The notes under the pieces are model-generated. The model did no database searches, was not told the origin of the DNA, and saw only the letters and a list, made by a program, of their open reading frames with translations. A program made the position numbers and the translations under genes. Positions 3,977 to 24,249 of a stretch of 29,481 bases of DNA are shown here, one piece after another. This stretch comes from a plasmid: the sequence record NZ_CP114643.1. One strand, 5' to 3'. Every line of letters begins with the position of its first letter. Within the stretch, counting starts at the first letter, position 1.

Positions 3977-3994
3977 AAGCCCCATTAGGGGCTT
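3977..3994. terminator. Bidirectional rho-independent terminator (AAGCCCC-ATTA-GGGGCTT) between convergent genes
   Basis: Perfect 7-bp GC-rich stem with a 4-nt loop. Flanked by A-rich sequence on the left and T-rich on the right. Lies between the + strand stop at 3957 and the - strand stop at 4000. Confidence 0.55.
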
Positions 3995-3999
3995 TAATA

Positions 4000-4362: not shown

Positions 4363-4363
4363 C

Positions 4364-5207: not shown

Positions 5208-5281
5208 GTGGGCTTTAACCTCTCCTTTAAAAATTTGTGTAGATATAAATATACAACAAAAACTAGTTTTTGCTACATTAT

Positions 5282-6088: not shown

Positions 6089-6100
6089 TAATTCCTCCGT

Positions 6101-7574: not shown

Positions 7575-7903
7575 GTGTTAATAACCGTTTCAAGTAAATC
7601 ACCAGGGAAGTAAAATGTAATATGCAAAGTTTTAAGTTTAAGTACAGTTTTAATTCCTGTAATATTAATTTGCAGTTGGTTAGCTATATTATAAAAATAT
7701 GATTTTATTTCATTTAGATTACCCAGTTTACATACTTTTAAAATATACAAATAATCAAGTCCCCATCCTAAAGCATAGGGTATACTGCCCTTTAGAGTGT
7801 TAATGAATATGAATAATCGTTGTTTTTGTTCCAAAATACCATCTATGATATGTAAGTCATAATTAAATATTAAATCGAAGTTGTCATTAACTTTAATGTC
7901 CAA
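7571..7903 (-). CDS. Baseplate wedge protein (gpW / gp25-like)
   Basis: 110 aa, the characteristic size for gp25/W-family proteins, placed between the spike and the J-like gene. Confidence 0.35.
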   Translation of the reverse strand: MDIKVNDNFDLIFNYDLHIIDGILEQKQRLFIFINTLKGSIPYALGWGLDYLYILKVCKLGNLNEIKSYFYNIANQLQINITGIKTVLKLKTLHITFYFPGDLLETVINT

Positions 7904-7977
7904 TCTTTACACCTTTATACATTTATATGTTTAACCTTTAACCACTAAAGTAAATATAATGCTATTATAGCAAAAAA

Positions 7978-8727: not shown

Positions 8728-8751
8728 GCGCTCTCCTTTTAAATTAAGCTT

Positions 8752-9675
8752 TCACTTTAAGTTATCTATTATGACATGATTAGAGTCATCATAAAGTTTA
8801 AGAATTAATGAACACTCAGAGTAGTTACTAAGAATTGCTGATACGTCCTCAATAGTATTTTTAATAGTATTTCCCATGTTATCAATAAAGGATACCTTGT
8901 CTGCAACTCTAAGTGCATGAGTATAGGTGACCTTAGCATTCCACCTTATTTGTGTAACTTTGTAGTTAGGCCCGATTGAAATTTCCTGTTGAGGGATAAA
9001 CTCTAATCCATAATCCTCAAGTGGTTCATAATAAGTATTAGTATCACTCTTTGTATTGTTGGTAAAAATAAAGTTACATTCAACTGAATTATCCGCATTG
9101 CCAATATCAGGAATAACTCTTTGTATATACTTATGAGACATCTTAGAGATAAATTCTTGGGGGGTTTGGGCAGTAATGTTTTCAGTAATAATTCTACTTT
9201 TATCAGCATAGCTCATTTTAATAATATTTTTACCAGGAAATACCCATTCGATAGCTTGAGAGACAGACATACCTATAAATTGTTTGTTTTTAAGATCACG
9301 TTTAAAGAAATTATCTTTAGTAGCTAGGTGTAGAGTAATCTCAACAGCAAAATCTCCACTAGGATAATCAGTACTCATAGGTACACCAATATAACCAGAT
9401 GAAATAAATTGAAAACTTGGTTGGTGATAATATTTTTTATAAAATATCTTAACAACATCACCTTGCCTGAGGTTAGAAGTAAAGTCTAAGGGTAAATTCC
9501 AAAGTACAAGTTTTACTTGTTTGGCCTTCACATAACTAAAACTAGAATAGACATTTGAAATAGATATATCAACATGAATGCCATCTTGAGTATCAATTAT
9601 GATATAAGGTGAGGTACTTTCTTTGAGTGTTGAGGATACCTTATAAAATTCAATTTTAAAATCATATTTAAGCAT
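8752..9675 (-). CDS. Baseplate hub / tail protein (Mu gpP or P2 gpD-like position)
   Basis: 307-aa ORF between the tape-measure-proximal gene and the spike. Called by synteny only. Confidence 0.3.
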   Translation of the reverse strand: MLKYDFKIEFYKVSSTLKESTSPYIIIDTQDGIHVDISISNVYSSFSYVKAKQVKLVLWNLPLDFTSNLRQGDVVKIFYKKYYHQPSFQFISSGYIGVPMSTDYPSGDFAVEITLHLATKDNFFKRDLKNKQFIGMSVSQAIEWVFPGKNIIKMSYADKSRIITENITAQTPQEFISKMSHKYIQRVIPDIGNADNSVECNFIFTNNTKSDTNTYYEPLEDYGLEFIPQQEISIGPNYKVTQIRWNAKVTYTHALRVADKVSFIDNMGNTIKNTIEDVSAILSNYSECSLILKLYDDSNHVIIDNLK

Positions 9676-9680
9676 TGGTG

Positions 9681-10331
9681 TTACCTTTTAGGAATTGTTT
9701 CTATTTTTGTATTTTGTGTTTTGTAAATTTCTTTACTTATATCTAATCCATTTTCTTTCTTTAGTGAGGCATTATAATGAAATTTTTTTAGTGTAAATGT
9801 TTTAATAACTTCCATATTTAAACTAACTTCAACCTCATCAATGTAGGGTGTATCTTTAAATGAGATTGAATTTATAACAATTAAATCTTTAATACCAAAT
9901 GTTGGACTATAAGCAGTAAATAACACTTGAGCTTGAAGTCTTTGAGCAAGTTGTTCTTTTGCCAAATTCCCATCAAATGCTAAGAGTGCATTACCAAAAG
10001 GAGTAGATTTAAGCAAACTTATCATTTCTCTGTAAGGACTTGTGAGTATTCCTTTATGCAGAGATATAAATTCACCTGTTAGTGTGGGGTTATAGCTAAC
10101 ATATTCAGCTTTACGAGAGTAATAATTTATAACAGGTCTTTTTGTGCATGTGGTGTTATAAGTTCTGTTAAGTAGTTCATTCTTGGGTTGAATAAAAAAT
10201 AATTGGGGTAAGTATTGTAAACCTTTAAGATCAGGTCTTGGGAATAATAATATAAAATTATGATTGATAAATGATGATGATATTTGCGTTAATATATCTT
10301 TGATTAAGTTTAATATTTCAGCAGAATTCAT
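9681..10331 (-). CDS. Tail protein following the tape measure (Mu gpN / P2 gpU-like position)
   Basis: The annotated ORF extends to 10460. Start reassigned to the ATG at 10331 (MNSAEILNLIKDIL), directly after the tape-measure stop at 10342 and with a G-rich RBS. Confidence 0.3.
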   Translation of the reverse strand: MNSAEILNLIKDILTQISSSFINHNFILLFPRPDLKGLQYLPQLFFIQPKNELLNRTYNTTCTKRPVINYYSRKAEYVSYNPTLTGEFISLHKGILTSPYREMISLLKSTPFGNALLAFDGNLAKEQLAQRLQAQVLFTAYSPTFGIKDLIVINSISFKDTPYIDEVEVSLNMEVIKTFTLKKFHYNASLKKENGLDISKEIYKTQNTKIETIPKR

Positions 10332-10341
10332 ACCTAACCCC

Positions 10342-11607
10342 CTAAGGAATCCTAGTAGAGTCATCACCACCTGTATGAGTAGTATGCTTATAATATGCCC
10401 CAAGACTTGAACCACCATCACCACCAAGGAAGCTTGGTAGTATTGATTTAAGTTTGGCAAAAAAGTACTCTAGAGAAAATATGCTTTTAATATTTTGTAT
10501 AAGTGGATTAATAATATCCTTTTCTAAATCAAAGTTGCGTGTCCAAGTAATTATTTGCAGCAAGTATTTTGATATAGGTGTTAGAATATCACTAGTTATG
10601 TTTTTAAGCTCATCATCTAATTTTTTAATATCACTATGAGTATTTTCAACCAGTCCTAAGTTTTTTGTAAGACCCAGTGAGGTAAAATCACGTAGCATGT
10701 GTTCTAACATTTCAGAAGCAATGTTTGGGTCATAAATTACATTTGATTCATATCTGTCTTTAGAATATTCTAAGTATTTACTTCCAAAATCGTCAAATTG
10801 ACTCATTAAAGCAAATGTAGAGTCGCCCTTACCAGAGAGTAGGTCTGCTATTGATGATATGGCTTGGTCAGTTGAGAGTATACCACTGCCTTTAATTTTA
10901 GCTGCAAATTCAACGGCTTTTAAGAGTGTATCTTTGTTATGAATGCCCATGTTTTTAAGCGTGCTCTTAATAACTCCAGCTTTGTTTAAGAAGTCTTCTC
11001 TCTCTATTCCTGAGTGGAACGATTTAATGCCTTTGAGTTTACCAAGTATAGTTGTTTTCTCATCACTGTTAAAGAATTTAGAGCTAATTAGGGACATTCT
11101 CGCTTGATTTGATTTTTCTTTAAGAGCATTGATTGCGTATCTTGCAAAATTAGACATAGCATTAGATGCTACATTACCAATAGCTGAACCAATTGCAATA
11201 GGGACAGTGATACTTTTTCTAGCTTGTTTGATTAACTTATTTTTTTGTTTAGTATCTTCTTGTAAGTGTTTATATTCTAATGCTCGTAAATCTTTGGATG
11301 ACATAAGTGAGCGCTTAAAAGCTTCATATCGTGCTTTGTGAAATGTGTGACCTTTCTTAATTAGTTTTTTAGTCTCACTAAGTCTAAACTTTTCTATTCT
11401 TTCTCTTAAATGTTCATATTTGTTTTGTTTTTGAAGTGATAGTTTTTTTTCATTTAAATTATACTTAATAAATTCTTTACTACTTCCCAATGTTATTCGT
11501 TTAGGTGTAATTAAATGTTCTAGTTTGGAGATATCCTTTTCTAATGATTTACGTGTTGCTGCATGATCTAGTGTCCCTTTAAATTTAATTGTAAATTTAT
11601 CATTCAT
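10342..11607 (-). CDS. Tail tape measure protein
   Basis: 421 aa, largely alpha-helical and charged. Small-residue segment AIGSAIGNVASNAMSNFARYAINAL and Gly-rich C-terminus GGDGGSSLG. Lies immediately after the chaperone pair and before the baseplate genes. Confidence 0.5.
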   Translation of the reverse strand: MNDKFTIKFKGTLDHAATRKSLEKDISKLEHLITPKRITLGSSKEFIKYNLNEKKLSLQKQNKYEHLRERIEKFRLSETKKLIKKGHTFHKARYEAFKRSLMSSKDLRALEYKHLQEDTKQKNKLIKQARKSITVPIAIGSAIGNVASNAMSNFARYAINALKEKSNQARMSLISSKFFNSDEKTTILGKLKGIKSFHSGIEREDFLNKAGVIKSTLKNMGIHNKDTLLKAVEFAAKIKGSGILSTDQAISSIADLLSGKGDSTFALMSQFDDFGSKYLEYSKDRYESNVIYDPNIASEMLEHMLRDFTSLGLTKNLGLVENTHSDIKKLDDELKNITSDILTPISKYLLQIITWTRNFDLEKDIINPLIQNIKSIFSLEYFFAKLKSILPSFLGGDGGSSLGAYYKHTTHTGGDDSTRIP

Positions 11608-11615
11608 AAGTAACC

Positions 11616-11852
11616 CTACTTAGCTAGAATAAGTTCTAGTATTTGCTTTTCTAACTTGGCACAAGCTATGTTATTAACCTCAACAAGTTCATCATAGTAC
11701 ATAACTTTAACTTCACTATAAGAACAAACATTTGCAAATACTGGAAGCCAGTATTTATTGTTTTGAACCCTTTCAATTAAATTAAAGTAACGCTCTTTAA
11801 CTATTTCAATATTTTTTATAAAATTCATTGTTTCTTTATTATAGTTATGCAC
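11616..11852 (-). CDS. Tail assembly chaperone, downstream frameshift partner (gpT/E'-like)
   Basis: 78-aa ORF overlapping the 3' end of the preceding chaperone ORF by 8 nt in another frame. This is the classical G/GT arrangement between tube and tape measure. Confidence 0.3.
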   Translation of the reverse strand: MHNYNKETMNFIKNIEIVKERYFNLIERVQNNKYWLPVFANVCSYSEVKVMYYDELVEVNNIACAKLEKQILELILAK

Positions 11853-12288
11853 AAATGTGTCCTGTATTTTTTATATTATTAACTACATATTCATAATTAA
11901 ACTGTGCATCATTGATGTAATCAAATACAACAAAATCACCTACATTGTTTTGATATTCTTTAAGGAAAATAAAAGATGGATTTTTAAATTCAGCATCTAA
12001 ATGAAAGGTATTGAACTGCACACAGTATATAATTGCAATGAGATAATCTTTATAATAAGTTGCAAACTCTCTATTATTATCAAGTATAAGATAAAACTCA
12101 TCTATGAATCCAGGCTTTATCATTAAATTAGTAATTTCTCTTAAGTATTTGATGTCGTAAAGTTTTTGGGTGCCATCCTGTTGAGAAAATCCAAGTACTA
12201 AGTCCCACTCGTACATTGGAAGTACTTTTAATGGATACTGGTGTGTTTTATCTTTACTTAAGATGTGCATTGTATATCGTGTAATCAT
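11845..12288 (-). CDS. Tail assembly chaperone (gpG/E-like)
   Basis: Start reassigned to the ATG at 12288 (MITRYTMHIL...) with RBS AAAGGAG, just after the tube stop at 12299. The ORF-track start at 12447 would overlap the tube gene by 149 nt. Confidence 0.35.
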   Translation of the reverse strand: MITRYTMHILSKDKTHQYPLKVLPMYEWDLVLGFSQQDGTQKLYDIKYLREITNLMIKPGFIDEFYLILDNNREFATYYKDYLIAIIYCVQFNTFHLDAEFKNPSFIFLKEYQNNVGDFVVFDYINDAQFNYEYVVNNIKNTGHICA

Positions 12289-12298
12289 TGTGACTCCT

Positions 12299-12727
12299 TT
12301 AATGTATTTTATGTATTTTTTCGCAATTAACTGCTCTAATCTCAAATGTAACCTTTTCAGCCTCAGCAGAGTAACTTCTTGAGGGTTCCTCAGTAAATAC
12401 TGCAGTATTACTAATAATTTTTGTTGCAATATGGTCATTAAATACAAGGTCTAGTATCTTATCATGTTTACTTATATTCATGTTATAAAACTGCTCATCA
12501 GCAAGTTGTGTTAGCAGGATATAATCTTGACTACCAAGTGTCACTTCAATGTTAAAGATATAAGTAATGGTTTTAGGATCTCTAAAGCTAACTACAGGCA
12601 TACCCCGATCCTCACTACTAATTACTGCCCTTGAGGAAGGTTCAGTTGTAATTTCTAATTTACCACTGTTAATTTGCTTACCACCTATTGAGAAGTAAAT
12701 ATCTTTTATGTTAAATAAGTTATTCAA
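12299..12727 (-). CDS. Tail tube protein
   Basis: 142 aa, directly downstream of the sheath-size gene and upstream of the chaperone pair and tape measure (Mu gpM / P2 FII position). Confidence 0.4.
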   Translation of the reverse strand: MNNLFNIKDIYFSIGGKQINSGKLEITTEPSSRAVISSEDRGMPVVSFRDPKTITYIFNIEVTLGSQDYILLTQLADEQFYNMNISKHDKILDLVFNDHIATKIISNTAVFTEEPSRSYSAEAEKVTFEIRAVNCEKIHKIH

Positions 12728-12730
12728 AGT

Positions 12731-13855
12731 TTATGACCTCCTATTATGAGTGTTTAAGTAATCACCAATGTCTTGTGAGGTGATATTAAGAGTCACACTA
12801 TTCATGCTGAAGTTGTAAATAATACCTACAGATAATGATAGATCTAAGTTGGTACTTGGGTTTATCTTCATGCTAAGATCTTTGTAGGAGACAATAATAC
12901 CTTGATCAATAAAGGTTTTAAGCGTGCACTCTAAAGCGGCAGTGTAAGCATTATCTCTCTTCCCATCAAGTTGCAGACTAGATAATTTACTGTTAGCTCT
13001 ATTATTGAAGTTCCATACTCTAATTAACTTGGATGTAAGTTCATATTTGATGTAATGGTATGTAAATATCTCATCAATTGGGGATCCATCAAGAGTTACT
13101 CCTTCTTTGAATGCAGGAATGCCATCAAGACCAGTTTCATTAAGGAGTGAGTAAAAGTTAATATTAGCACTTCTAAGTTTACTGATTGTGTCACTATCAG
13201 TAATAGGGTGTATCCCGTTAAACTTTACTCCATAAGGGTTCACAGCATGAAACATGCTAGCTTCATGTAAGTATTTAGATATGAATCTTAAGTTAAGATG
13301 TTCTTCTGCCTTAGAGTGGATAACAATAATCCTAGATTTAGTGTTAGTAGCATCTGTAAAGAGCGCTTTTATTTCAGACTCTTTGGTTGCAAATACAAAG
13401 AAATGCTTATCTTCTTTAAAATGTGTGTAGTCATCTTTGTAAAGAGTAATCCCATCACCACCATCACTTGAATAAGTATTAATAAGGGTAATAAAAGTAT
13501 TTCTGTTTTGTATTAGCTCTGTTTTAATTGCTTGTGCCGCTGTAGATTCCTTGTATATAAGTAGTTTAACTGATCTTAGGCCCGCATCTCCATAGGAGAA
13601 AAATGCACATAGTGCCCGCTTAAGGTATGCTTTCTCATTATTAAATTCTGTCTCATCATTACTCCCTTCTTTCTCTAGGGTATCAATTAGTTTTTCAAAG
13701 TTATTTATATTCAAGTGTAGTATCTTTACTTTGGGTGTTGATGATGCAAGCTTAATTTTTGCACATTTATATACAAGTAGTGGCTGGTAGTAATTTACAT
13801 TTTTGATGTCTAATGTTTCATGAATTAAATTGACATTAATTGTATCTTGTGGCAT
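12731..13855 (-). CDS. Contractile tail sheath protein
   Basis: 374-aa ORF followed by a tube-sized gene, as in the sheath-tube-chaperone-TMP order of myoviruses. Confidence 0.4.
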   Translation of the reverse strand: MPQDTINVNLIHETLDIKNVNYYQPLLVYKCAKIKLASSTPKVKILHLNINNFEKLIDTLEKEGSNDETEFNNEKAYLKRALCAFFSYGDAGLRSVKLLIYKESTAAQAIKTELIQNRNTFITLINTYSSDGGDGITLYKDDYTHFKEDKHFFVFATKESEIKALFTDATNTKSRIIVIHSKAEEHLNLRFISKYLHEASMFHAVNPYGVKFNGIHPITDSDTISKLRSANINFYSLLNETGLDGIPAFKEGVTLDGSPIDEIFTYHYIKYELTSKLIRVWNFNNRANSKLSSLQLDGKRDNAYTAALECTLKTFIDQGIIVSYKDLSMKINPSTNLDLSLSVGIIYNFSMNSVTLNITSQDIGDYLNTHNRRS

Positions 13856-14155
13856 TTACCTCTCCTTTGGTGTTTCTATTATTTGTACATTGGCTTTAAA
13901 TGAACTGCTGGCACAGTATGCTAAGCTTTCATGCGTAGAGTGTAGTTTTAAGGCACCACTTTGATTTAAGTTTGACGTATTATAAATATATATGTTAATT
14001 AAAGTAATATACTCATTAGAATCAATGATAAATGTGTTTTGTTTTCCGTAATAAAGGAAATCACTAAATTGTGAGTATAACTCTAGTACTCTTGTATATG
14101 CATTTTTTTGAGGTTTGTTTTGTATAAAACAAATGAAATACAGTGTAAAGAGCAT
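13856..14155 (-). CDS. Hypothetical head-tail joining/tail completion protein (start uncertain)
   Basis: 99-aa ORF whose first about 30 codons overlap the upstream gene in another frame. No internal Met, so the true start may be a non-ATG codon. Confidence 0.2.
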   Translation of the reverse strand: MLFTLYFICFIQNKPQKNAYTRVLELYSQFSDFLYYGKQNTFIIDSNEYITLINIYIYNTSNLNQSGALKLHSTHESLAYCASSSFKANVQIIETPKER

Positions 14156-14390
14156 ACGTCATTTCATTGACGTTATCATAAAATGCACCTGTACGCATGT
14201 TATGATTAAATAAACCCTCAACATTATCAAACTTAATAACTAAAACATTTTCATTATCTACTGTAAGCTTTGACATATATGGATGGTTGTACGTGTTAAT
14301 GACTTGTATATCAAACTGTGTAACAAATTCTTTAAAGTTTTTCAGTATAGTAATTATGTATTTTTGTATATTGTAAATATCAAGTATCAT
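14064..14390 (-). CDS. Head-tail connector/tail completion protein candidate
   Basis: 108 aa, translationally coupled (4-nt overlap) in a run of four 108-127 aa genes between the capsid candidate and the sheath. Confidence 0.3.
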   Translation of the reverse strand: MILDIYNIQKYIITILKNFKEFVTQFDIQVINTYNHPYMSKLTVDNENVLVIKFDNVEGLFNHNMRTGAFYDNVNEMTYALYTVFHLFYTKQTSKKCIYKSTRVILTI

Positions 14391-14758
14391 GTATGGGTCC
14401 TAGCCTGAATTGAATCAAGCATTAATCCAGTATCAATTAGTGGTGTTGTTGGGTGTGCACTTTCCTTAGCTCGCTTAGCATTAATAGTTTTAGTTGATAG
14501 TTTAGGTGTTATTTGGCCTGCTAGGACATAGTCTTTATAAAAGTGAATAAATAACTCTCCAAAAGATCTCATACCAACCTCAATACCTTTATTAAATTCA
14601 CCATGCATATAAGGGGTATTAATATACTCCTTAAACGCACTTGAGGATGCTACCTTGTGTAGGTGACTTCTAGTAGGCATCTTATCACTTCCAAGCTCAT
14701 GCATAAGTGCGACATTTGCTCGCAAGTCAAACCAACCAATCTCAAGCTCTATGTCCAT
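14387..14758 (-). CDS. Head-tail connector/adaptor protein candidate
   Basis: 123 aa, coupled to its neighbours. Position typical of head completion and neck genes. Confidence 0.3.
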   Translation of the reverse strand: MDIELEIGWFDLRANVALMHELGSDKMPTRSHLHKVASSSAFKEYINTPYMHGEFNKGIEVGMRSFGELFIHFYKDYVLAGQITPKLSTKTINAKRAKESAHPTTPLIDTGLMLDSIQARTHT

Positions 14759-15123
14759 GCTATCCTCCGTAAAATGAGTGTCTTGTACCCCAAGCTATAA
14801 TCAAGTTTAATTATTTCAAAGTACTCCTCATCCAGTGCTACTCTGTCTTGAATATCAAATTCTAAGTTTGCATATGTATAAAGCTTAGCTAAGTGACTTG
14901 AGTCAAATAGACCGGAATCTTCAATTAAACTAAGCTCACGCTCAGAGATATCAATAATAATTCCAACAAACTCTGTGTAAGTATGTTTACTAAATGTAAT
15001 CTCATTACTTTGCAACTCTTCATCTCTGTCGTGTATCCCTTTATAAAACTTAAATAATGCTTCCTCAGCAAACCTATTTATCATACGGGTTGCCATACTG
15101 GAGATTCTATTGCGCAGGTTCAT
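14749..15123 (-). CDS. Head-tail connector/adaptor protein candidate
   Basis: 124 aa, start overlapping the upstream stop. Acidic protein. Confidence 0.3.
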   Translation of the reverse strand: MNLRNRISSMATRMINRFAEEALFKFYKGIHDRDEELQSNEITFSKHTYTEFVGIIIDISERELSLIEDSGLFDSSHLAKLYTYANLEFDIQDRVALDEEYFEIIKLDYSLGYKTLILRRIAWT

Positions 15124-15506
15124 TACACAACTCCTATGGTTTTATGTGCATTAGATTTAATTTGTGTTACAAGATTTTCAAAATGAGTGCAATAATCTAC
15201 CAAGTTACTACTACCCTCTTGCTGGTAATAATCAATCTCAAGCTCACCAAGTTTTTCCTTTTTTACTTGTACAAATTCATTTATTACTCCATAACGCCTA
15301 AGTTGGCATCCTAGGTGATAGGTTAGTAGTAGTGATAACTGATTAGCATTAAGTGAATTTAAGTTAATTCCACGTGTTGAAAGAATCATTTCAAGTAAAT
15401 TTGATTGGACTTTAAACATATCAAAGCTTAAATCTGAGTCACTTACACCAAGAGAAGCTTTAATGTTATTGTATATTTCTTTAAATCCATCAGACTCACT
15501 ACTCAT
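15123..15506 (-). CDS. Head completion protein candidate
   Basis: 127-aa ORF directly after the capsid-sized gene. Confidence 0.3.
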   Translation of the reverse strand: MSSESDGFKEIYNNIKASLGVSDSDLSFDMFKVQSNLLEMILSTRGINLNSLNANQLSLLLTYHLGCQLRRYGVINEFVQVKKEKLGELEIDYYQQEGSSNLVDYCTHFENLVTQIKSNAHKTIGVV

Positions 15507-15510
15507 ACTT

Positions 15511-16482
15511 TTAACTTTGCTTAATATTAACTCTTAATATGCTTTTTCCTGTTGCAATAAGTCCGCCAAGCACAAAGTCAAGATATGAATATGCAACATC
15601 AGTTGAATCTTTATCTATTTGTTCATTGGGCATTGGTAACATGTACTTACTAGGTTTGAATTTAATTAGTTCTGCATTTAATGGATATATAAGTATTTGG
15701 TTTGATAGTAAGTTACTTGTTTGCACACAAACGTCTTTTCTATTATTAACAGCTTTAATAGTCTTAATTAGCAAATCTTCCCATGAATCAGTTGAAGAAC
15801 AAATATGAGAATTTGATGATGATGGTATTGCATATGACTTAACAAGTTTTAAACTTGTTTTAGGGTCAACTAGTACCATCATAGGAGTTGAGAACTCATC
15901 ACCAAGTTCTAACTTTGAGAGACCCTCTTCAATCTTTTCAAATATCTTATCCATTTTATCTTTATTGGAAGCCTCAACATCTTCTTTAATCTGATCTGGT
16001 ATATTAAGTAAGCCGTACATATTAGGAAGCAGACGCTTTTGATTCTTACCATCTTTTTTTATTGTGACAGTACCAGTTAAAATAAAGTGATTTATAAGTT
16101 TAATAATCTCATTACTAGCAAGTTTATACGCCTCACCAAATGGAAGTAAATTGTTATTTACATCACCTGCGTAATCATCATTTTGGTAATACTGCTGTGA
16201 GGATTGCTTTAAATGTCTAAACTTGTATTGTAATTTAAGATAGTGCAGTTGAGCTGTATCTGACCTAAAAATAGTTGAGATACTCCTAACTTCATTAATT
16301 AATGTTGTAGGATTAGCATTAAGAAATGCGTCCCATTTAATTGTTTTCAGGTATCCTGTCTTTAAGTCAACGTCCTCTATTTGCTCACTAGCAAACCACT
16401 CATAAAATACTGGTAATTTAATTTGGGGAAATATATTTGATATTTCTTTAGCATAATAGTTTTGATCATATAAATCTGACAT
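15511..16482 (-). CDS. Major capsid protein candidate
   Basis: 323 aa (HK97-fold size range). Follows the scaffold-like gene and paralog trio and precedes the connector genes. Called by position only. Confidence 0.3.
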   Translation of the reverse strand: MSDLYDQNYYAKEISNIFPQIKLPVFYEWFASEQIEDVDLKTGYLKTIKWDAFLNANPTTLINEVRSISTIFRSDTAQLHYLKLQYKFRHLKQSSQQYYQNDDYAGDVNNNLLPFGEAYKLASNEIIKLINHFILTGTVTIKKDGKNQKRLLPNMYGLLNIPDQIKEDVEASNKDKMDKIFEKIEEGLSKLELGDEFSTPMMVLVDPKTSLKLVKSYAIPSSSNSHICSSTDSWEDLLIKTIKAVNNRKDVCVQTSNLLSNQILIYPLNAELIKFKPSKYMLPMPNEQIDKDSTDVAYSYLDFVLGGLIATGKSILRVNIKQS

Positions 16483-16494
16483 TTGTAATCTCCT

Positions 16495-17052
16495 TTAACT
16501 TGGTTTACCTTTATTACCATAAATAGCTACATGAACCAAACAAATTTTTTTCTCAGCATCAAGGTCTATGACGTCTGATAATGCTATGGCATTAATTTTG
16601 CTATTATTTGAGGTATCTTTTTCAAGCTCACCATTTGAATCAAATTTAAGCTTATCTTTTCTTTTGATACTACTGTTTTGTTTTGCAACTAAGTATCCAG
16701 TAAATTCATTTGTTATTGGAAGTACTGTTGCAGTACTAGTAAACTCATCTATATCTATGCATATACCGTAAATATCATCCTCACCCCCAACCTCAACATG
16801 AGGTTCATATTCTGTATCAATTACTTGTTTCACACCACGTTTATATGGATACCCCTTAAAGAAGAAATTTTCTAATTTGTCATATCTACTAGTAACAGTG
16901 CCCCCTTGATTAGCGAAGTGTAAATTTTTATCTCTAAAATCAACCCTGTTACTAAAGGTACTACTATCATTAGTAGGATTTTTCATTTGTTTTTTTAGCT
17001 TTTTAAGCTTGTCTTGATAATCAGTTACTAACTGAGTTACATTTGTTGACAT
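16495..17052 (-). CDS. Head-module paralog 3 of 3 (unknown function)
   Basis: 185 aa. Shares a conserved core with the 17840..18397 and 17076..17840 genes (FANQGGT.TS, GYPYKRGVK, HVEVGG, YGICIDIDEFTSTA.VLPITN.FTGYLV). Confidence 0.4.
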   Translation of the reverse strand: MSTNVTQLVTDYQDKLKKLKKQMKNPTNDSSTFSNRVDFRDKNLHFANQGGTVTSRYDKLENFFFKGYPYKRGVKQVIDTEYEPHVEVGGEDDIYGICIDIDEFTSTATVLPITNEFTGYLVAKQNSSIKRKDKLKFDSNGELEKDTSNNSKINAIALSDVIDLDAEKKICLVHVAIYGNKGKPS

Positions 17053-17075
17053 CTAACTCTCCTAACCTATAGGTT

Positions 17076-17840
17076 TTAAGAAACTGCCTTATTACCATAA
17101 AGTGATATTTTTATTAAATGCAGTTTGTAATCTTCTTGCTCTTTTTTAGATTCATCATCAGTAAGTTGCAGCGTATATATACTTGATAATGCAATGGCAT
17201 TAATTGATACTTGTGAGTAACTTGATGCTTTAATAACTCTTCCATATGAATCAAAATCTAATTTATCACCAACATTAATGCCACTAGAGCTTGCTGCAAC
17301 TAAATATCCTTGGAAGTTATTTGTTATTGGCATTACTGTTGCTACATTCCTATACTCATCAATGTCAATGCATATCCCATACATATTCTTACCATCAGAC
17401 ACCTCAACAGAGATTGAATCAGGTTTTGTAGTTTCAACTTTTAATTTAACTGCTCGTTTATACGGAAATCCTATAGCAGTGTATTCCTCTATCTTGTCAG
17501 TACTACTTGACACAGCTTGAGAGATAGCATCAAATGTTATGTTTTTATCTCTAAAATCAGCTTGAGGTTTAAATACTGCTCTATCATAATTAAAGCTTTT
17601 AGAGTATTTCTTTAACTTTAATATATAGTCTTTAAGTGTCTTACCCTCAGTAGTTTCTAGAACTGGTGCATGCCTCTTGCCTCTCCTTTTGCCTCCTGAT
17701 GTATGGATATGTGATTCTTGTTCTAATTGTTGTTTTAAAGACTCTACAATCTCAGTATCATCCATTGAAGCATACATTTCAGGATCAAGTGATTCATTTG
17801 GTCTTAAGCTTGGCGTTTGTTGTTCCTTACTACGCAGCAT
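17076..17840 (-). CDS. Head-module paralog 2 of 3 with N-terminal extension (unknown function)
   Basis: 254 aa. C-terminal 180 aa is paralogous to the flanking genes (GFPYKRAVK, YGICIDIDEYRNVATVMPITNNFQGYLV). Extra N-terminal 70 aa are acidic then basic (GGKRRGKRHAP). Confidence 0.4.
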   Translation of the reverse strand: MLRSKEQQTPSLRPNESLDPEMYASMDDTEIVESLKQQLEQESHIHTSGGKRRGKRHAPVLETTEGKTLKDYILKLKKYSKSFNYDRAVFKPQADFRDKNITFDAISQAVSSSTDKIEEYTAIGFPYKRAVKLKVETTKPDSISVEVSDGKNMYGICIDIDEYRNVATVMPITNNFQGYLVAASSSGINVGDKLDFDSYGRVIKASSYSQVSINAIALSSIYTLQLTDDESKKEQEDYKLHLIKISLYGNKAVS

Positions 17841-18397
17841 TAGTTGATTCCTCTATTTCCAAATATACTTACAAGGGCTATATAGAGGTTATCATTGATT
17901 TTAAATGACTTTGATAAGGCAATACCATTAATTGTGCGAGAACTTGAACCACTATCATTTTCAACCTCTCCATTAGAATCAAATTTAACTTTTACTCCTG
18001 GTGTAATTGAAGATTGACTACTTTGCTTTACTACTAAGTATCCAGTAAAGTCATTTGTAATAGGAAGTATACTAGCAGTACTAGTAAATTCATCTATATC
18101 AACACATATTCCATATAGATCAGCACCACCCCCCGCCTCAACATGTGGTTCATAATCATCATCAAAAGATAACTTGACACCACGTTTATATGGGTAACCT
18201 TTAAAATAATGATTTTGTAGCCTATCAACACTACTAGTAATAGTGCCCCCTTGATTAGCAAAGTGTAATCCTTTATCTTTAAAACCTATATCTGCATGAA
18301 AAAGCCCAACATCTCTATTTGGGTTCTTCATTATGTCTTGTATTTCTTTTACCTTTTTATCATATTCAGTCTTTAGTTGTGTTATGTTCTGTGACAT
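17840..18397 (-). CDS. Head-module paralog 1 of 3 (unknown function)
   Basis: 185 aa, about 60% identical by eye to the 16495..17052 product. Stop overlaps the start of the next paralog. Confidence 0.4.
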   Translation of the reverse strand: MSQNITQLKTEYDKKVKEIQDIMKNPNRDVGLFHADIGFKDKGLHFANQGGTITSSVDRLQNHYFKGYPYKRGVKLSFDDDYEPHVEAGGGADLYGICVDIDEFTSTASILPITNDFTGYLVVKQSSQSSITPGVKVKFDSNGEVENDSGSSSRTINGIALSKSFKINDNLYIALVSIFGNRGIN

Positions 18398-18409
18398 ATA
18401 TGTTACTCC

Positions 18410-19096
18410 CTAAGCGCTTTTTTTAGTTTTAAGGTTATAAAACTGTTCTCGTATTGACTTGTAAGCATTAACAATAGAGATATTAAACTCATTAAAGTTA
18501 TGTGGAGTAAAATTAGGATCCAGTATTGATAATACTTCATTTGATAAGCTAAATTTAACATCTCCTTTAGAAGTGATTTTAGTAGCCTGTATTCTTTTCT
18601 TTATATTTACTTTAGCAAGATTAACAAGTTGTTCAAGCACCTTACCATCTAAATGCTGAGTGTCTCTTACCTTAGAAATAGCGTAAATATCATCAATTGG
18701 AACATATTTCCTAACAAGCTCTCTGCGTTGTGCCTGCATTATATCTTTGAGTGAGTATCCCTTAGAAAGAAGTGATTCTTTATTAAAATGTGAACTTAAA
18801 TGCTTACGTGCCAAATTATCAATCTCATTAATACGAGTAGCTTCAAGTAATAGTTTCTGCTCTTGTTCTTCTCGTGCCTGTGCCTCAGCAAGCTCACGTG
18901 AGATCCTTTCATTAATACTTAAATTCTTGTTAATGTGCTCTTTTTCTTTTTCTGCCTTATATACCCTGTATTCCTCATAATCTTTTAAATTTAAATTAAC
19001 ACTCTCTTGAGTGTTCCTAAGTTCTTCTGTGTTTGTATTAGTAGTATCTTGACTCTCTTGTGTCCTATCTAAATTTTCTTGTATTTCTTGGATCAT
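18410..19096 (-). CDS. Scaffold-like acidic coiled-coil protein
   Basis: 228 aa. Glu/Gln-rich helical N-terminal half (AEAQAREEQEQKLLLEATRINE). Lies between the portal candidate and the capsid region. Confidence 0.3.
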   Translation of the reverse strand: MIQEIQENLDRTQESQDTTNTNTEELRNTQESVNLNLKDYEEYRVYKAEKEKEHINKNLSINERISRELAEAQAREEQEQKLLLEATRINEIDNLARKHLSSHFNKESLLSKGYSLKDIMQAQRRELVRKYVPIDDIYAISKVRDTQHLDGKVLEQLVNLAKVNIKKRIQATKITSKGDVKFSLSNEVLSILDPNFTPHNFNEFNISIVNAYKSIREQFYNLKTKKSA

Positions 19097-19107
19097 AACC
19101 TCTCCTT

Positions 19108-20322
19108 TTAATATTCATAAAAAAATAATTTTAATCTTAAGGCATGAAGCTCTCTTTGACTTAAACAATTACTTGCTTCTAATTCCTTATATTTACGCAC
19201 TAATTCTATGAGTTTAGAGTCCCTATCGTACTTTTCCTCCTCACCAAGTATGTGTAGTGAATTAAACCTCATATCTAAGTGGTAATGCTTGTTTAATTTG
19301 CTATTAATAGTAACTTCTATCTTTTCTTGCACACTCTTTAAGAAGTCATAGTAATTAGACCTATCACCCTTACCCTCATTGCCTAGTCCCTTAACTTGTT
19401 CATTAAAGCTACGTGTTAGTGGCTCTTTTGTGTCAGCCCCAATCTTAGCTTTGACTAATGCTAAGGCTTCCTTAAGATAGCTAATATCATACTTTATGAC
19501 TTCCATTGATGCATCAGTTTCACAGCTATAAAAGATCCCACCATTATCCAACTTAGATTTAAGTCTTGCAAGCTCACCTACTAATTCATCATTTGCATTA
19601 ACTGACAATGTGACATTATTATCTTTTGTAGATGAAGCATTCTTAGTAAAGAACTCTTTAAAGAAGTTACCTCTGCTCTTATTTGTACCTTCTTTTGATA
19701 CTGCAGCAGTTGATAGGTCCTCTTTAATATGTGAGAGTGATTCATCTTTGTAAAACAAAAAGTTATGGGTATCTATTCTCTTCTCTATTTCTTGGTAGAT
19801 CTTCTCTAGTAAATACACATCAAGAAGGAAGCTTTCACTGTAACATGGAATATAAGAACCCAATATATAATCATAATTAGAGTATATGATTAATCTACTT
19901 TTGTGTATTGTTAATGTAGTAAAGCCTGAGGAACTTAAGTCTAAACTTTCACCTTTAAAGTAGTAGTTTATATGAGTAGACTCTGGTCCAAGGTCATGTA
20001 CCCTAGAATAATCTAAATACATAAATCCTATAGGAAGTTCACTATTAACTTCCAAGTGCAAATCACCTGTCTGGTCTGCAGTTTTAACTAAAATATACCC
20101 AACACCATTAAACCGACAGCTAATAATACACTGCATTAATGCTTCTTTAAGCTCGAGTTTAAGTTTATCTAATTCTTCGCACATAGATGTAACAGAAGAA
20201 GACGTACTCTGCAAACTAATTCCATTCTTTAGCACGTCTTCTGCTACATTCTCTATATAATTCCTAAAAAATATTGAATACTTATATAAGTCCCTTGCGT
20301 TTACTTTAAACCTTAAACTCAT
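19108..20322 (-). CDS. Portal protein candidate
   Basis: 404-aa ORF. First large structural gene after the large terminase (separated from it by the inserted Bdr-like gene). Called by synteny and size only. Confidence 0.35.
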   Translation of the reverse strand: MSLRFKVNARDLYKYSIFFRNYIENVAEDVLKNGISLQSTSSSVTSMCEELDKLKLELKEALMQCIISCRFNGVGYILVKTADQTGDLHLEVNSELPIGFMYLDYSRVHDLGPESTHINYYFKGESLDLSSSGFTTLTIHKSRLIIYSNYDYILGSYIPCYSESFLLDVYLLEKIYQEIEKRIDTHNFLFYKDESLSHIKEDLSTAAVSKEGTNKSRGNFFKEFFTKNASSTKDNNVTLSVNANDELVGELARLKSKLDNGGIFYSCETDASMEVIKYDISYLKEALALVKAKIGADTKEPLTRSFNEQVKGLGNEGKGDRSNYYDFLKSVQEKIEVTINSKLNKHYHLDMRFNSLHILGEEEKYDRDSKLIELVRKYKELEASNCLSQRELHALRLKLFFYEY

Positions 20323-20461
20323 TTAAATAACATCTAACCTTACACAATAAATATAATGCAACAATTAGTTTTTGATATAATTTAATTAACAAAAAAATTT
20401 ATTTTTTACAAAAAAAAATAACTATTGGATTTTCACTTTTATGCTTTTGCTTATTTTAAAT

Positions 20462-21211
20462 TTACTTATTTAATAATGAATACACTATTGAGATTAATGT
20501 TAAGAATATCCCTACATTAAGTGTGATAAGAGTTCCAAACATCCATCCATGTAATTTTAATGTACCTTTAATTTCTGAGGTTGATTTGTCTATCTTACTA
20601 TCAAGAGTATTTATCTTACTATCAAGCTCAGTCCTATTTATTTCCATATCTTTTCTAACAAGAGCAACTTCATTACTTACAGAGGCAATCTCAGATTTTA
20701 AGCTTGTCTCTACTTTGTCAATTTTATTATCAAGATCTCTAATATCAGATTTTAAGCTAGCTTCAACATTGTCAATTTTATTATCAAGATCTCTAATATC
20801 AGATTTTAATTCAGTTCTAACATTCTCGATTTTATTATTTAAGTTATTCTCAACGTTATCTATTTTATTATCAAGTTCTCTAATATCGGCTTTTAAGCTA
20901 GCCTCAACGTTATCTATTTTATTATCAAGTTCATTAAATTTATTATCAATTTTATTATTAAGTTCAGTATGGACTGCTTTAATCTCAGATTTTAAACTAA
21001 CTTCTACCTTTTCAATATCAGATTTTAAGCTAGCTTCAACTTTTGCAAGCTTAATGTCAAAGTTTTCTTTAAGATACTCAATATCTTTGTGAGTAAGCTC
21101 ATTTTTATAATACCTGTAAGATAAATCCTCAGCAATCTCCTGATTAATACCCGCTTTAATAAGCTCAGCTAATACCATTTGTCTTGTAATAATAGTTTGA
21201 GGCAAACCCAT
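20462..21211 (-). CDS. Bdr-like repeat protein: coiled-coil KID-repeat protein with C-terminal membrane anchor
   Basis: Central array of 11/18-residue repeats (LDNKIDNVEASLKSDIRD x several). C-terminal hydrophobic segment WMFGTLITLNVGIFLTLISIVYSLL. This architecture (KID-containing repeats plus C-terminal anchor) is that of Borrelia Bdr proteins. Confidence 0.5.
   Translation of the reverse strand: MGLPQTIITRQMVLAELIKAGINQEIAEDLSYRYYKNELTHKDIEYLKENFDIKLAKVEASLKSDIEKVEVSLKSEIKAVHTELNNKIDNKFNELDNKIDNVEASLKADIRELDNKIDNVENNLNNKIENVRTELKSDIRDLDNKIDNVEASLKSDIRDLDNKIDKVETSLKSEIASVSNEVALVRKDMEINRTELDSKINTLDSKIDKSTSEIKGTLKLHGWMFGTLITLNVGIFLTLISIVYSLLNK
20640..21060. repeat. Imperfect tandem DNA repeats (unit about 54 bp, with 33-bp sub-units) encoding the Bdr-like repeat region
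   Basis: Seen directly, e.g. TCTCTAATATCAGATTTTAAGCTAGCTTCAAC.TT.TC.ATTTTATTATCAAGATC recurs at 20739..20790, 20791..20840, 20870..20925 and 20990..21050 with substitutions. Confidence 0.5.
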
Positions 21212-21252
21212 ATAGAAACTCCTTATATAATTATTATATAATAATTTAAATA

Positions 21253-22611
21253 TTATATGAACCTTATTTTAGTAAAATGTGCTTTTAAAGAACTCCTACC
21301 CAAACTAAGTAACATATATAGAGCAGATAATGCATCAATTGAATCATCATCACCCTTACCATCACCTTTATACTTGTAAATATCAGCAATAGCAGATTTA
21401 CTACTAAAATCTAGGATACTTAAATTTGATGAGTTAATAGGACCTATTAAAGTAGCAATTCTAGTAAATTTATTACTTATAGGTTTAATAGGAGCAATTC
21501 TGTAATGATGATTCATATGTGCCCTAAGATTAATAAACACTTTAGTAATACTACCTTTCCCAGTAGTATTATCCCTATCTTCAATATAAAGTGTATGCAC
21601 ATTTAAGTTTTCTAGTATAGTCATAATTGTATTTAATACTCTTGGGTCACTTGCTGGAAGTTTGTCTTGAAATATAAATGCATAATACTTGTTATCTACT
21701 CGCTCTAATACACAAAGTGCACTGTTATCACAACCAATACTATAAGCAGGTTCTAGGTAGGCTATTGGGGATTTAAATTCATATTTTTCTTTACTTATAA
21801 GATTAACATTAGTAAATATAGCCTCATTAGATGCAACCCATTCTCCTAAGAGCACTCTTGCTTTATATGTTGGTTGGTCTTTATATAGTTGTTCTTGTGT
21901 CTTAATAAAGTCTAAGGGTATTAATGCGTTATCATATGTTGTAAAGTTATATGTAGCATAAATATCAGTATTATCAATATAATCAGTTTTAAAGTAATGC
22001 TCAGGATGATCTGGGTTGGTATCAAAGATGATACTTTGCTTTCCAACTCTGAGTCTTTTAAGACATTCTATTAATGTTTCTTTATGAAGAGTAGTTGCTT
22101 CATTAACATAGATGATAGCAGAATTAGAGCCTCTGAAGCGTTCAAAGTCACTTGCCTTATCTCCACCATATAAATTAACTCTTAAGGAATCTACTTCAAA
22201 ATAAGAAGTATTGGAATACTTGGGTACAAATGATATATTAAGCATACAAGCAATTTTATCAAATTGCCCCAATACATTAAGTTCTAAAGATTTTTGTGAA
22301 TTGCCCAAAATAAAATTATTGGTATCTTGCTTGTATAAATGTCTACCAGTAAGCAGTATTTTTAAGAATAGATAACATGCTAAGAATGTTTTACCACTGG
22401 CAATCCCTCCACAAAGAATAATCTTAGTTTGCTTATGTTCTTCAATACTATTTATAACTGCTAATTGTTTTGGTGTTAAATGTGTTTGCTCAAAGTTTTT
22501 AAAGTTAACATCTAAACTTTTAGGCTTAATGTAATCTTGTATATCAATCCCATATTTATGTTTATATTTTTTTCTGTATTTAACAAACAAACTACTCTTG
22601 TATATATCCAT
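21253..22611 (-). CDS. Terminase large subunit
   Basis: 452 aa. Walker A motif ILCGGIASGKTF near the N-terminus and acidic nuclease-like C-terminal half. Immediately downstream of the HTH small-subunit-like gene at the head of the late operon. Confidence 0.7.
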   Translation of the reverse strand: MDIYKSSLFVKYRKKYKHKYGIDIQDYIKPKSLDVNFKNFEQTHLTPKQLAVINSIEEHKQTKIILCGGIASGKTFLACYLFLKILLTGRHLYKQDTNNFILGNSQKSLELNVLGQFDKIACMLNISFVPKYSNTSYFEVDSLRVNLYGGDKASDFERFRGSNSAIIYVNEATTLHKETLIECLKRLRVGKQSIIFDTNPDHPEHYFKTDYIDNTDIYATYNFTTYDNALIPLDFIKTQEQLYKDQPTYKARVLLGEWVASNEAIFTNVNLISKEKYEFKSPIAYLEPAYSIGCDNSALCVLERVDNKYYAFIFQDKLPASDPRVLNTIMTILENLNVHTLYIEDRDNTTGKGSITKVFINLRAHMNHHYRIAPIKPISNKFTRIATLIGPINSSNLSILDFSSKSAIADIYKYKGDGKGDDDSIDALSALYMLLSLGRSSLKAHFTKIRFI

Positions 22612-22614
22612 AAG

Positions 22615-23163
22615 TTATTCTTTGTATTTAGTAATATCAATAACAGATTTAAGTTTGAGGAGCACTTTATAACACAGATCCATTTTTTTAGTTTCAATTT
22701 TTTTTTCAAGCTCTTTAAGTTCACTTATCTTTAAATTAAGACTGAAAGAATCATTAGAATCTGCATTTGTAATATCTTTCCTACACTGCAGTATTTCATT
22801 ATGTAATTTGTCTGCCTGCTTAACATCATCTTGTAATTCTAGCTGACAATACTTATTAAAGGATGAAAGAAAGGTTAATGCAATATTGTTTTTCTCAATC
22901 TCTACTTGATTTTTAAGTCTATTAGCGTGAGTTTCAGTCTCTAAACTTCGGGCAAGCATATTATTGAAAGTATCCTCACTAATAGTAAGCTTAGAGGTAC
23001 TAGTAACATAATTTGATTCATCTTTTAGGGATTTCCATTTGCGTCGCATCTTACCAACATTAACACGAGATACCCCCAATTCTTTAGCGATTTCTGCATC
23101 CTTAAGTCTACCCTCTTTAAAGTAGACTATATAATCATTGTAGGTTTTCTTAAGTCTGCTCAT
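22615..23163 (-). CDS. Terminase small subunit-like HTH protein
   Basis: Start reassigned to MSRLKK (ATG 23163, RBS AAAGGAT). Helix-turn-helix AEIAKELGVSRVNVGKMRRKW followed by a coiled coil. First gene of the operon, 4 nt before TerL. Confidence 0.4.
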   Translation of the reverse strand: MSRLKKTYNDYIVYFKEGRLKDAEIAKELGVSRVNVGKMRRKWKSLKDESNYVTSTSKLTISEDTFNNMLARSLETETHANRLKNQVEIEKNNIALTFLSSFNKYCQLELQDDVKQADKLHNEILQCRKDITNADSNDSFSLNLKISELKELEKKIETKKMDLCYKVLLKLKSVIDITKYKE

Positions 23164-23325
23164 ATCCTTTAACTTTAATTTAATAAATAAGTTAACATAA
23201 ACTATACACCAAAACAATAAAGTTTACAAAAACAATATTTTTATATAAAAGCAGATATACACATATAAGTAACTAGGTTATAATACTTAAATTAATTAAA
23301 TATTAAAATTTAAAGGAGAATATTT

Positions 23326-24249
23326 ATGAATAAATATATATATTGTTTAATACTATGTAGCATGTTACTTTTCTACTGTTGCGGAGAGCGTAATCCTATG
23401 CCAAAAGGGAATAACCTAACAAATGATTCTAATACTACCTTAAGTGCTGATGAACAACAAAAAGTTGATACTCTAATTTATGTATTTAAAAAAATGATAG
23501 AAAATGATAACCAATTGAACATGGAACAAAAAGAAAAATACAAAATGTTTGAAATTTGGTTATTAAAAGATACTCAAAAACAAAAAGAATTGGCTGATCA
23601 TTTTCAATATGTATACTATCTTTTAGACCAAGAAACAAAGCCACAACAAGCAAGCAACATACCTACTAAACAAATTATAGTAAATACTATTGATTGCGTA
23701 GCGTCAAATCAATGTGATGGCAGAAATGATGTGTACTCTTATCATCGAGATGATTCGATGACTGATGGAGAAAAAATAAAAAGTTTTTTTAGCAATCTTT
23801 TACACAATATACTTGACACACTTAAAAAGTCTAACAATAACATAAATACATATGAAGAAGTGTTTAAATATCTTAGATCAGAATTCGTTTCTCCAAACAA
23901 TGCTATTATTACGGGTTTATCAACCGATGAGACACTTAACAAAATGAGATTCAATAATCAACAAATAAAAGCAATAAGATTCTTGCAAGATAGTATAGGT
24001 AAGAGTAAACAACATATAAATAATTCAACATATATATCTTTTATAGTCTTAAGCAATTCAACGGTTAAACCGGCACTAGATTATATATATAATGAACTTT
24101 TAAAGTGTAATGAAAATCAACAAAGTATTGATAATTTTAATGAGGATTTACACAACTATTTTTGGTCTCTAGCTCCAAATAAAATTAATGATGAGACAAT
24201 AAAGCAATTACCAAATAAAGTGACTATTAAATGTGGAAATGCTAATTAA
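23326..24249 (+). CDS. Lipoprotein, 307 aa, function unknown (candidate lysogenic-conversion surface protein)
   Basis: RBS AAAGGAG. N-terminus MNKYIYCLILCSMLLFYCCGE is a signal peptide with lipobox-like Cys. Divergent from the late operon. Confidence 0.45.
   Translation: MNKYIYCLILCSMLLFYCCGERNPMPKGNNLTNDSNTTLSADEQQKVDTLIYVFKKMIENDNQLNMEQKEKYKMFEIWLLKDTQKQKELADHFQYVYYLLDQETKPQQASNIPTKQIIVNTIDCVASNQCDGRNDVYSYHRDDSMTDGEKIKSFFSNLLHNILDTLKKSNNNINTYEEVFKYLRSEFVSPNNAIITGLSTDETLNKMRFNNQQIKAIRFLQDSIGKSKQHINNSTYISFIVLSNSTVKPALDYIYNELLKCNENQQSIDNFNEDLHNYFWSLAPNKINDETIKQLPNKVTIKCGNAN

Follow-up and report, generated by a model that had tools for sequence, protein, structure and literature searches.

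The stretch of DNA considered here (sequence record NZ_CP114643.1, 29,481 nt; hereafter the window) carries in its prophage late operon, on the minus strand and between the genes for the terminase large subunit (TerL) and the portal protein, a gene for a Bdr family repetitive protein of 249 residues (20462..21211), identified from its open reading frame (ORF), a match to the NCBIfam profile NF040499 and an annotated identical protein. The upstream neighbor, TerL (21253..22611, minus strand), was recognized by Pfam Terminase_6N/6C and the NCBIfam PBSX TerL family, and the downstream one, the portal gene (19108..20322, minus strand), by Pfam Phage_portal_3 with 177 bits; this confirms the arrangement proposed in an initial annotation of the sequence, in which the gene is set off by spacers of 41 nt (21212..21252) on the TerL side and 139 nt (20323..20461) on the portal side. 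That annotation also described all other late genes as tightly coupled, which is a slight overstatement, as the median intergenic gap is indeed 9 nt, but gaps of 60, 74, and 74 nt are also present. The 139-nt spacer is the longest truly non-coding gap of the late operon, because the sole larger one (441 nt) contains an intact DUF1463 ORF. The bdr gene begins with an ATG preceded by the ribosome-binding site AAGGAG (21224..21219), and three parts can be distinguished along it, all on the minus strand: a conserved N-terminal head domain (21035..21190, residues 8–59), supported by a full-profile match, the structural model and paralog identity; a hypervariable array of imperfect in-frame repeats (20586..21060), with units of 33, 21, and 54 nt that correspond to KID repeats of 11, 7, and 18 residues, delimited by repeat finding and paralog comparison; and a C-terminal transmembrane anchor (20471..20542, residues ~224–247), followed by only two residues and supported by hydrophobicity, model and conservation.

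By sequence identity, the window is a circular cp32-like prophage plasmid of Borrelia miyamotoi, of about 29.5 kb: the 3.7 kb around bdr are 99.8% identical to cp30-2 of B. miyamotoi MN18-0001 (NZ_CP150061.1, 29,483 bp, circular), and almost the entire window aligns to that plasmid at 99.7% identity. The annotation of NZ_CP150061.1 is that of a cp32-like prophage, with mlp, an integrase and partition genes, the last followed by a long late operon on the minus strand; this operon starts with the DUF603 gene and TerL, continues with portal, DUF1357 and DUF228, and ends at the BlyA/BlyB lysis genes. The bdr gene is already known, the window protein being 100% identical to WP_070401422.1, annotated in NZ_CP150061.1 as "Bdr family repetitive protein", and the gene being annotated at the TerL–portal position in hundreds of public plasmid records.

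The likeness to Bdr proteins first suggested by the architecture of the product, for which a profile search had been proposed as a check, proves to be true membership, already annotated in RefSeq. The NCBIfam profile Bdr_N_group1 (NF040499, cut-off 40 bits) matches residues 8–59 over its full length (positions 1–52 of 52) with 96.4 bits and an E-value of 6e-28. A homologue search at E<=1e-5 found 229 proteins, and the best 120 of these are all from Borrelia except one probable contaminant, nearly all are named Bdr, and they include B. hermsii BdrA, BdrC and BdrC2-4; the exception, a Bdr filed as Pseudomonas aeruginosa on a 3.8-kb contig (P0025, 188 residues, 62% identity), is almost certainly Borrelia contamination. 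The 628 plasmid records matched all belong to Borrelia, Borreliella or Candidatus taxa. The head domain alone retrieved only 36 cluster representatives among 1.84 billion proteins, and those inspected are Bdrs, save for a spurious leucine-rich-repeat protein and one unnamed metagenomic repeat protein; the latter (P0151, 146 residues), built of tandem ~45-residue units (…VERQLVLKHLEKSNVNPRVIEEVRQDFHRRD…) and with a weak likeness to the Bdr head in three stretches (E 2e-4), could be a distant Bdr relative or a chance match. B. hermsii BdrA and BdrC (P0031, P0042) share with the window Bdr the group-1 head, the KID-containing 11-residue repeats and the C-terminal anchor, with 50–54% identity over 90–98% of the length, and the head and anchor sequences of B. 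hermsii BdrA are almost exactly those of the Bdr encoded in the TerL–portal slot of B. nietonii cp30-1. The Pfam KID repeat (PF02524) gave a borderline match on an 81-residue fragment, with 19.3 bits against a cut-off of 20.8. The N-terminal domain, the array with a KID core about every 11 residues, the C-terminal hydrophobic anchor and the plasmid-borne, multi-copy and Borrelia-restricted distribution that characterize Bdr proteins are all found here, and these comparisons firmly establish the gene at 20462..21211 as a true bdr whose product has an N-terminus of group 1. The window allele, with 249 residues, is longer than every one of the best 120 homologues (137–236 residues), and its tail (…IVYSLLNK) resembles those of some linear-plasmid Bdrs, unlike the soft-tick prophage alleles (…SLLVK). 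In Pfam, the whole protein matches 25 coiled-coil families, nearly all below their cut-offs, with only Baculo_PEP_C and Fzo_mitofusin marginally reaching theirs, and the head alone matches no Pfam family; the apolipoprotein, keratin, DUF1664 and CCDC90-like matches from the Pfam and PDB profile searches are restricted to the repeat region, and the apolipoproteins and keratin, which dominated the PDB profile search, were rejected as sharing the 11-residue-repeat composition.

The KID-containing 11/18-residue repeats and the C-terminal anchor described in the initial annotation are likewise borne out by six KID tripeptides, by self-identity peaks at lags of 11, 18, 29, and 47 residues, and by a hydrophobicity maximum of 2.1 on the Kyte-Doolittle scale at residues ~224–247. 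Phosphorylation of the repeats has been proposed for the Bdr family, and in the window protein S/T-x-x-D/E motifs number only five. The AlphaFold2 model, run with 44 homologues, has a mean predicted local distance difference test score (pLDDT) of 90 and consists of two short helices (residues 10–19 and 24–35) and then one unbroken helix (residues 41–247) that takes in the anchor segment, and across the 44 homologues the WMFGT motif (W223, M224, F225, G226, T227) is invariant or nearly so. Sequence and model together show a predicted helical head of ~60 residues, a long helix of 11- and 7-residue KID modules and a C-terminal membrane helix. Foldseek found no match at E below 1 for this model in the PDB, and the top matches, MerR-type regulators at E 1.4, reflect no more than a general shape in which two short helices accompany a long one. 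Since the protein is without a signal peptide and has only two residues past the membrane helix, it would be tail-anchored in the inner membrane with head and stalk in the cytoplasm; the Bdr proteins of B. burgdorferi are reported at the inner membrane, not at the surface (review PMC10016077). The stalk may form an oligomeric coiled coil, because the hydrophobic spacings of 4, 4, 3, 4, and 3 per 18 residues place one hydrophobic residue at each turn. An ORF of 189 residues lies antisense to the bdr repeats (20523..21092, plus strand; …SILLSRSLISDFKLAST…) and has most likely arisen as a side effect of the repeats; in B. hermsii and B. coriaceae, too, gene callers report antisense ORFs of 95–101 residues within bdr (loci L059, 3620-3907, and L060, 3602-3907).

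The position of the gene is not peculiar to the window. The order DUF603–TerL–bdr–portal is found in all lineages of B. miyamotoi, in 137 plasmid records that cover at least 80% of a junction-spanning query, and likewise in B. parkeri, B. turicatae, B. nietonii, B. puertoricensis and B. hermsii, in decayed form on pl33 of B. recurrentis, and in the reptile-associated B. turcica, there with an extra ORF of 105 residues before the portal gene. That ORF, on B. turcica lp27 (locus L006, 5397-5714), encodes a very hydrophobic product with no counterpart in the window (tblastn E 2.5). The upstream spacer measures 39–41 nt across the slot-carrying species and 26 nt in B. turcica, and the downstream spacer 111–164 nt where the portal gene directly follows bdr. 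In the Lyme group, the portal gene lies ~100 nt after TerL, without bdr, in 10 of 10 loci from several species, and cp32-1 of the Lyme-group strain 297 likewise has TerL and then portal with no bdr between them. These 10 loci are those that contain both TerL and portal in a scan of genome contigs by TerL alignment, which returned Lyme-group loci almost exclusively, without any prophage plasmid of relapsing-fever species, and served as a negative control. The comparisons show that the TerL–portal slot is the standard position of this bdr in the prophage plasmids of relapsing-fever (seven species) and reptile-associated Borrelia, and on this distribution the insertion is ancient and lineage-wide. 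A literature search found no paper that discusses bdr between terminase and portal, the early primary Bdr papers being outside its reach.

The initial annotation contrasted this position with B. burgdorferi cp32, where bdr was said to sit next to the partition genes. A partition-adjacent bdr does exist there, but it is not the true counterpart. Lyme cp32 carries two bdr genes, assigned by NCBIfam to different groups: the partition-adjacent gene has the KID repeats and family membership of the window gene, but a group-2 N-terminus (NF040500) and a different C-terminus, whereas the gene located after the lysis cassette and before mlp belongs to group 1. In strain 297 cp32-1, this mlp-adjacent gene (16508..17158) matches NF040499 with 93.8 bits, and hence falls in the same N-terminal group as the window Bdr; it shares with the window gene the TATAAT–ribosome-binding site–ATG arrangement and the co-orientation with the late operon, but lies at the 3′ end of the late operon instead of between terL and portal, and its protein is only ~35% identical to that of the window. 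The window has no second bdr, and none beside the partition genes (1..2730), its only copy being that in the TerL–portal slot; the plasmid therefore conflicts with the statement of a recent review (PMC10016077) that relapsing-fever cp32s have bdr beside the replication locus. Group-1 Bdrs are also found in non-prophage contexts, in B. crocidurae and B. coriaceae.

The 41-nt upstream spacer (21212..21252, minus strand) is a candidate bdr promoter on the basis of a promoter scan and of conservation, with a −10 box TATAAT at 21238..21233 upstream of the ribosome-binding site and a weak −35 element TTCATA at 21261..21256, within the end of TerL; the scan match is 10/12. This spacer is nearly invariant in relapsing-fever species, with the core ATT(A/G)TATAATAATTAnATAAGGAG. 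In the ten species examined, the TATAAT is conserved irrespective of the upstream gene, its distance to the bdr ATG being 21 nt in relapsing-fever species and for the group-1 bdr of B. burgdorferi, and 18 nt in B. turcica. When the relapsing-fever spacer plus ATG was slid ungapped along both strands of Lyme cp32 (61,718 positions), the best match fell in register upstream of the group-1 bdr, where the B. parkeri spacer gave the unique top score (29/44) and the window spacer a tied top score (28/44). The mlp-adjacent bdr of Lyme spirochetes has its own promoter, according to the review (PMC10016077), and this together with the in-register match suggests that the control region moved together with bdr.

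The downstream spacer (20323..20461, minus strand), as delimited by paralog comparison, is composed of a variable distal part (20408..20461), with a T9 run at 20410..20418, and a conserved portal-proximal part (20323..20407); among the five paralogs of MN18-0001 described below, identity is 56–74% in the former and 89–100% in the latter. The idea that this spacer carries an internal promoter for the structural genes found no support: the scan of its 139 nt returned neither a coding-strand promoter-like site nor a terminator, promoter-like sites in the region as a whole are below chance, and the 41-nt upstream spacer is the better candidate. Across species, a portal-proximal block is conserved in which a TA...T hexamer occurs without a −35 partner. 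Terminator-like hairpins with U runs stand downstream of the gene in B. parkeri, B. turicatae and B. nietonii (8-bp stems) and also in B. turcica, and B. puertoricensis has a strong terminator-like hairpin after bdr (−20.9 kcal/mol, z −6.75).

The 54-bp and 33-bp imperfect repeats seen at first inspection were recovered by Tandem Repeats Finder, with periods of 54 nt (20687-20838, 87% matches) and 33 nt (20981-21048) and an additional one of 87 nt (20765-20965). A 47-nt unit occurs seven times over 20687-21060, at spacings of 54, 54, 33, 54, 99, and 33 nt, with related copies down to 20586, and the longest exact repeat inside the array is 41 nt, at a spacing of 54. In MN18-0001, five replicons carry a bdr in the slot, of 750 nt on cp30-2 (the equivalent of the window allele), 720 nt on cp26, 687 nt on lp101, 597 nt on cp30-1 and 576 nt on cp29; all five keep the reading frame, and they differ in length by sums of 11- and 7-residue units. 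Identity among the five paralogs is ~100% from the 3′ end of TerL across the 41-nt spacer into the first ~190 nt of bdr, and again in the membrane-anchor segment, whereas in the repeat region (21022..20560) it drops to 24–88%, with gaps of up to 65%. Similarly, the window and the cp30-1-type plasmids are 100% identical on both sides of the repeats, and their repeats differ by 153 nt. An in-frame length polymorphism confined to the stalk is what these alignments show. In an exact 24-mer map, the window array is a patchwork of modules common to the cp29, cp26 and lp101 alleles, which indicates recombination or gene conversion among co-resident paralogs; in-frame unequal exchange of this kind would alter the length of the stalk while head, anchor and reading frame are kept.

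The array had also been described as unstable-looking and its variants with different repeat numbers as likely. Such variants do exist, given the five paralog lengths in one strain, but "unstable" is overstated, as in three plasmid types the bdr locus has one and the same length in all nine isolates of the type (3651, 3616, and 3520 nt), a constancy that points to recombinational diversification and not to rapid instability. The window allele is moreover 100% identical to that of MN18-0001, although the plasmids are only 99.7% identical over the 24.9 kb aligned, and in a passage of PMC3303823 that cites earlier work, the B. burgdorferi bdr locus examined is described as stable in culture, with a repeat number that varies between strains. 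Phase variation by a frame-shifting or promoter-spacing unit is not indicated, the units being of 21, 33, and 54 nt.

Evidence on the fate of the gene when its surroundings degenerate comes mainly from B. recurrentis A1, where pl33 (locus L062, about 260-5560) contains two decayed TerL–bdr–portal units in which both bdr genes are intact (789 and 441 nt), whereas what is left of TerL is either a frameshifted, truncated gene or its last 30 codons, and of portal the first 43–67 codons. In MN18-0001, the portal gene of cp26 (locus L054, 1598-2942) and TerL of cp30-1 (locus L057, 3574-4925) are unlisted, with bdr listed as intact in both; since pseudogenes are left out of the plasmid table, the two phage genes may have decayed next to an intact bdr, as in B. 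recurrentis. That bdr is intact beside the decayed phage genes of B. recurrentis indicates that it is kept for a reason other than virion production.

In lambdoid phages, a moron is an extra gene that lies between phage genes, has its own promoter and terminator, and is expressed from the uninduced prophage to the benefit of the host. The bdr gene resembles such morons in that it lies between genes that are adjacent in related phages (the 10 Lyme-group loci and strain 297 cp32-1), has a candidate promoter, is followed in sister species by a terminator-like hairpin, and outlasts the decay of phage genes. It differs from them in lacking a distinct base composition and, in the window, a terminator hairpin, and in being ancient and lineage-fixed. 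The description of the gene as a moron in the initial annotation thus finds comparative support in the TerL–portal adjacency of the Lyme group, in the −10 box and ribosome-binding site that travel with the gene, and in its persistence through decay, but the insertion is ancient and lineage-wide and not peculiar to the window. The conserved control region, the decay-resistant bdr and the non-prophage copies together fit a moron-like accessory gene that would benefit the bacterium. As a cassette with its own −10 box and ribosome-binding site, it would probably be expressible from the resident prophage, and probably also be read through from the late operon on induction, since there is no upstream terminator and the ribosome-binding site is strong. 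The best overall explanation, with a probability of roughly 80%, is a group-1 Bdr protein encoded in a lineage-wide slot as a moron-like cassette with a recombining repeat array.

Several observations weigh against this explanation. Promoter-like sites across the region number 19, against 23.6 expected in shuffled sequence, and the independent bdr promoter is suggested by the conserved −10 box, the −35 element being weak. The downstream spacer of the window folds into no significant hairpin (z −0.4) and offers only the T9 run, so that a terminator of its own is wanting in the window, whereas five other species have hairpins at the same place. The GC content of bdr (0.279, against 0.293 for the plasmid) gives no compositional sign of foreign origin. 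Either a gain in the relapsing-fever lineage or a relocation in the Lyme lineage would account for the two positions. Finally, a genuine phage function would also explain why the gene is oriented like the late operon, spaced tightly (41 nt) and kept in the slot across species.

This last point leads to the view that the slot bdr is part of the late operon proper, is expressed on induction only and serves the phage life cycle, for which membrane tethering of packaging or assembly, help in lysis, or superinfection exclusion are candidate roles. Besides its co-orientation, strong ribosome-binding site and the missing upstream terminator, this view can claim the retention of the slot in seven relapsing-fever species and B. 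turcica, the again co-oriented group-1 bdr of Lyme cp32, which directly follows the lysis genes, and weak matches of a C-terminal fragment, at E 0.075 with a phage holin family and at E 0.19 with PBSX XhlA. These matches are, however, non-significant, group-1 Bdrs occur on non-prophage plasmids, and bdr remains undamaged next to TerL and portal pseudogenes. In Lyme-group prophages, which still make particles, portal follows TerL with no gene in between; this further counts against a dedicated phage function, and this view is considered unlikely. A still lower probability, far below that of the phage-gene view, is given to the array as a fast contingency locus, in which frequent slipped-strand changes would produce antigenic or functional variants during infection. 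The long imperfect repeats, with an exact 41-nt duplication at 54-nt spacing, and the five paralog lengths in a single strain would suit such a locus, but the constancy over nine isolates for each of three plasmid types, the identical alleles of the window and MN18-0001, and the B. burgdorferi data in the cited passage of PMC3303823 speak for stability, units that are all multiples of 3 nt make on/off switching impossible, and an inner-membrane rather than surface location (PMC10016077) would not favor antigenic variation. Slightly less improbable, though still a long shot, is the proposal, based on the five replicons with five lengths and identical heads and anchors, that stalk length is kept different among co-resident prophage plasmids as a host-selected cassette, each Bdr forming a homo-oligomer of defined length that would act as a plasmid- or prophage-specific membrane tether or ruler; if true, it would imply a role, for example, in segregation, replication-site anchoring or exclusion, and a repeat array under diversifying selection instead of neutral drift.

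A question of another order, compatible with the moron-like cassette explanation, is whether Bdr is a diverged member of the DUF1640/CCDC90 (MCUR1) family and not a Borrelia-specific invention. The overall architecture is alike in that a long coiled coil joins a small head to a C-terminal membrane helix, the NCBI name of some Bdrs (P0044, P0077) is "DUF1640 domain-containing protein", Pfam PF07798 matches with an E-value of 3e-6 and 27.7 bits, and the Bdr profile gives a marginal match (E 0.006) to PDB 6h9l, which we take to be a DUF1640/CCDC90 member. The Pfam score is, however, below the cut-off of 33.5, and the match is limited to the coiled-coil part (profile 47-151), so that membership is not established; the tail does not match PF07798, the head matches no Pfam family, Foldseek gave nothing at E below 1, and apolipoproteins and keratin score higher, which points to repeat composition. 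A likeness of the Bdr head to the DUF1640 head motif was borne out by no test. On balance, this relationship is as doubtful as a phage function of the slot gene. As for the ORF being a non-functional relic or an artefact of low-complexity repeats, the repeats can yield spurious frames, as illustrated by the 189-residue antisense ORF (20523..21092, plus strand); the gene is intact with all indels in frame in five paralogs and eight species, its head and anchor are conserved, its ribosome-binding site is strong, and it is retained in the degraded B. recurrentis plasmids, and by this conservation the artefact reading is already effectively refuted.

Further observations concern the rest of the plasmid. 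The ORF that occupies the apparent 441-nt gap in the late operon (12299..12727, minus strand) is intact, with 142 residues, a TTG start and a match to Pfam DUF1463 of 233 bits, and is missing from the plasmid feature table, where the locus tag RS06420 is skipped. Three successive DUF228 paralogs (16495..18397, minus strand; 185, 254, and 185 residues) follow the DUF1357 gene, a triplet also present in Lyme cp32. Upstream of mlp, an ORF of 307 residues (23326..24249, plus strand) has a lipoprotein-like N-terminus (…LLFYCCGE…) and matched no Pfam family. Rfam and tRNA scans over the whole window found nothing. Compared with the cp30-1-type plasmids, the window is 99.3–99.5% identical over 1187..20776; beyond this segment, identity is patchy (85–99%) through TerL and the DUF603 gene (21300..23300), and the partition region differs. 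Recombination among co-resident prophage plasmids has thus made the window a clear mosaic.

In summary, the finding is in itself ordinary, since the gene belongs to a named family, and the comparative details add modest value. The order terL–bdr–portal is a usable synteny marker that cleanly separates the prophages of the relapsing-fever and reptile-associated clades from those of the Lyme group. Prophages of the two lineages carry this type of bdr at opposite ends of the late operon, each time with that −10 box and ribosome-binding site, which indicates that the gene moved as a cassette. The intact bdr between broken TerL and portal genes in B. recurrentis argues for a service to the bacterium rather than to the virion, and this retention provides a hint for a family that has been without a known function for 25 years.

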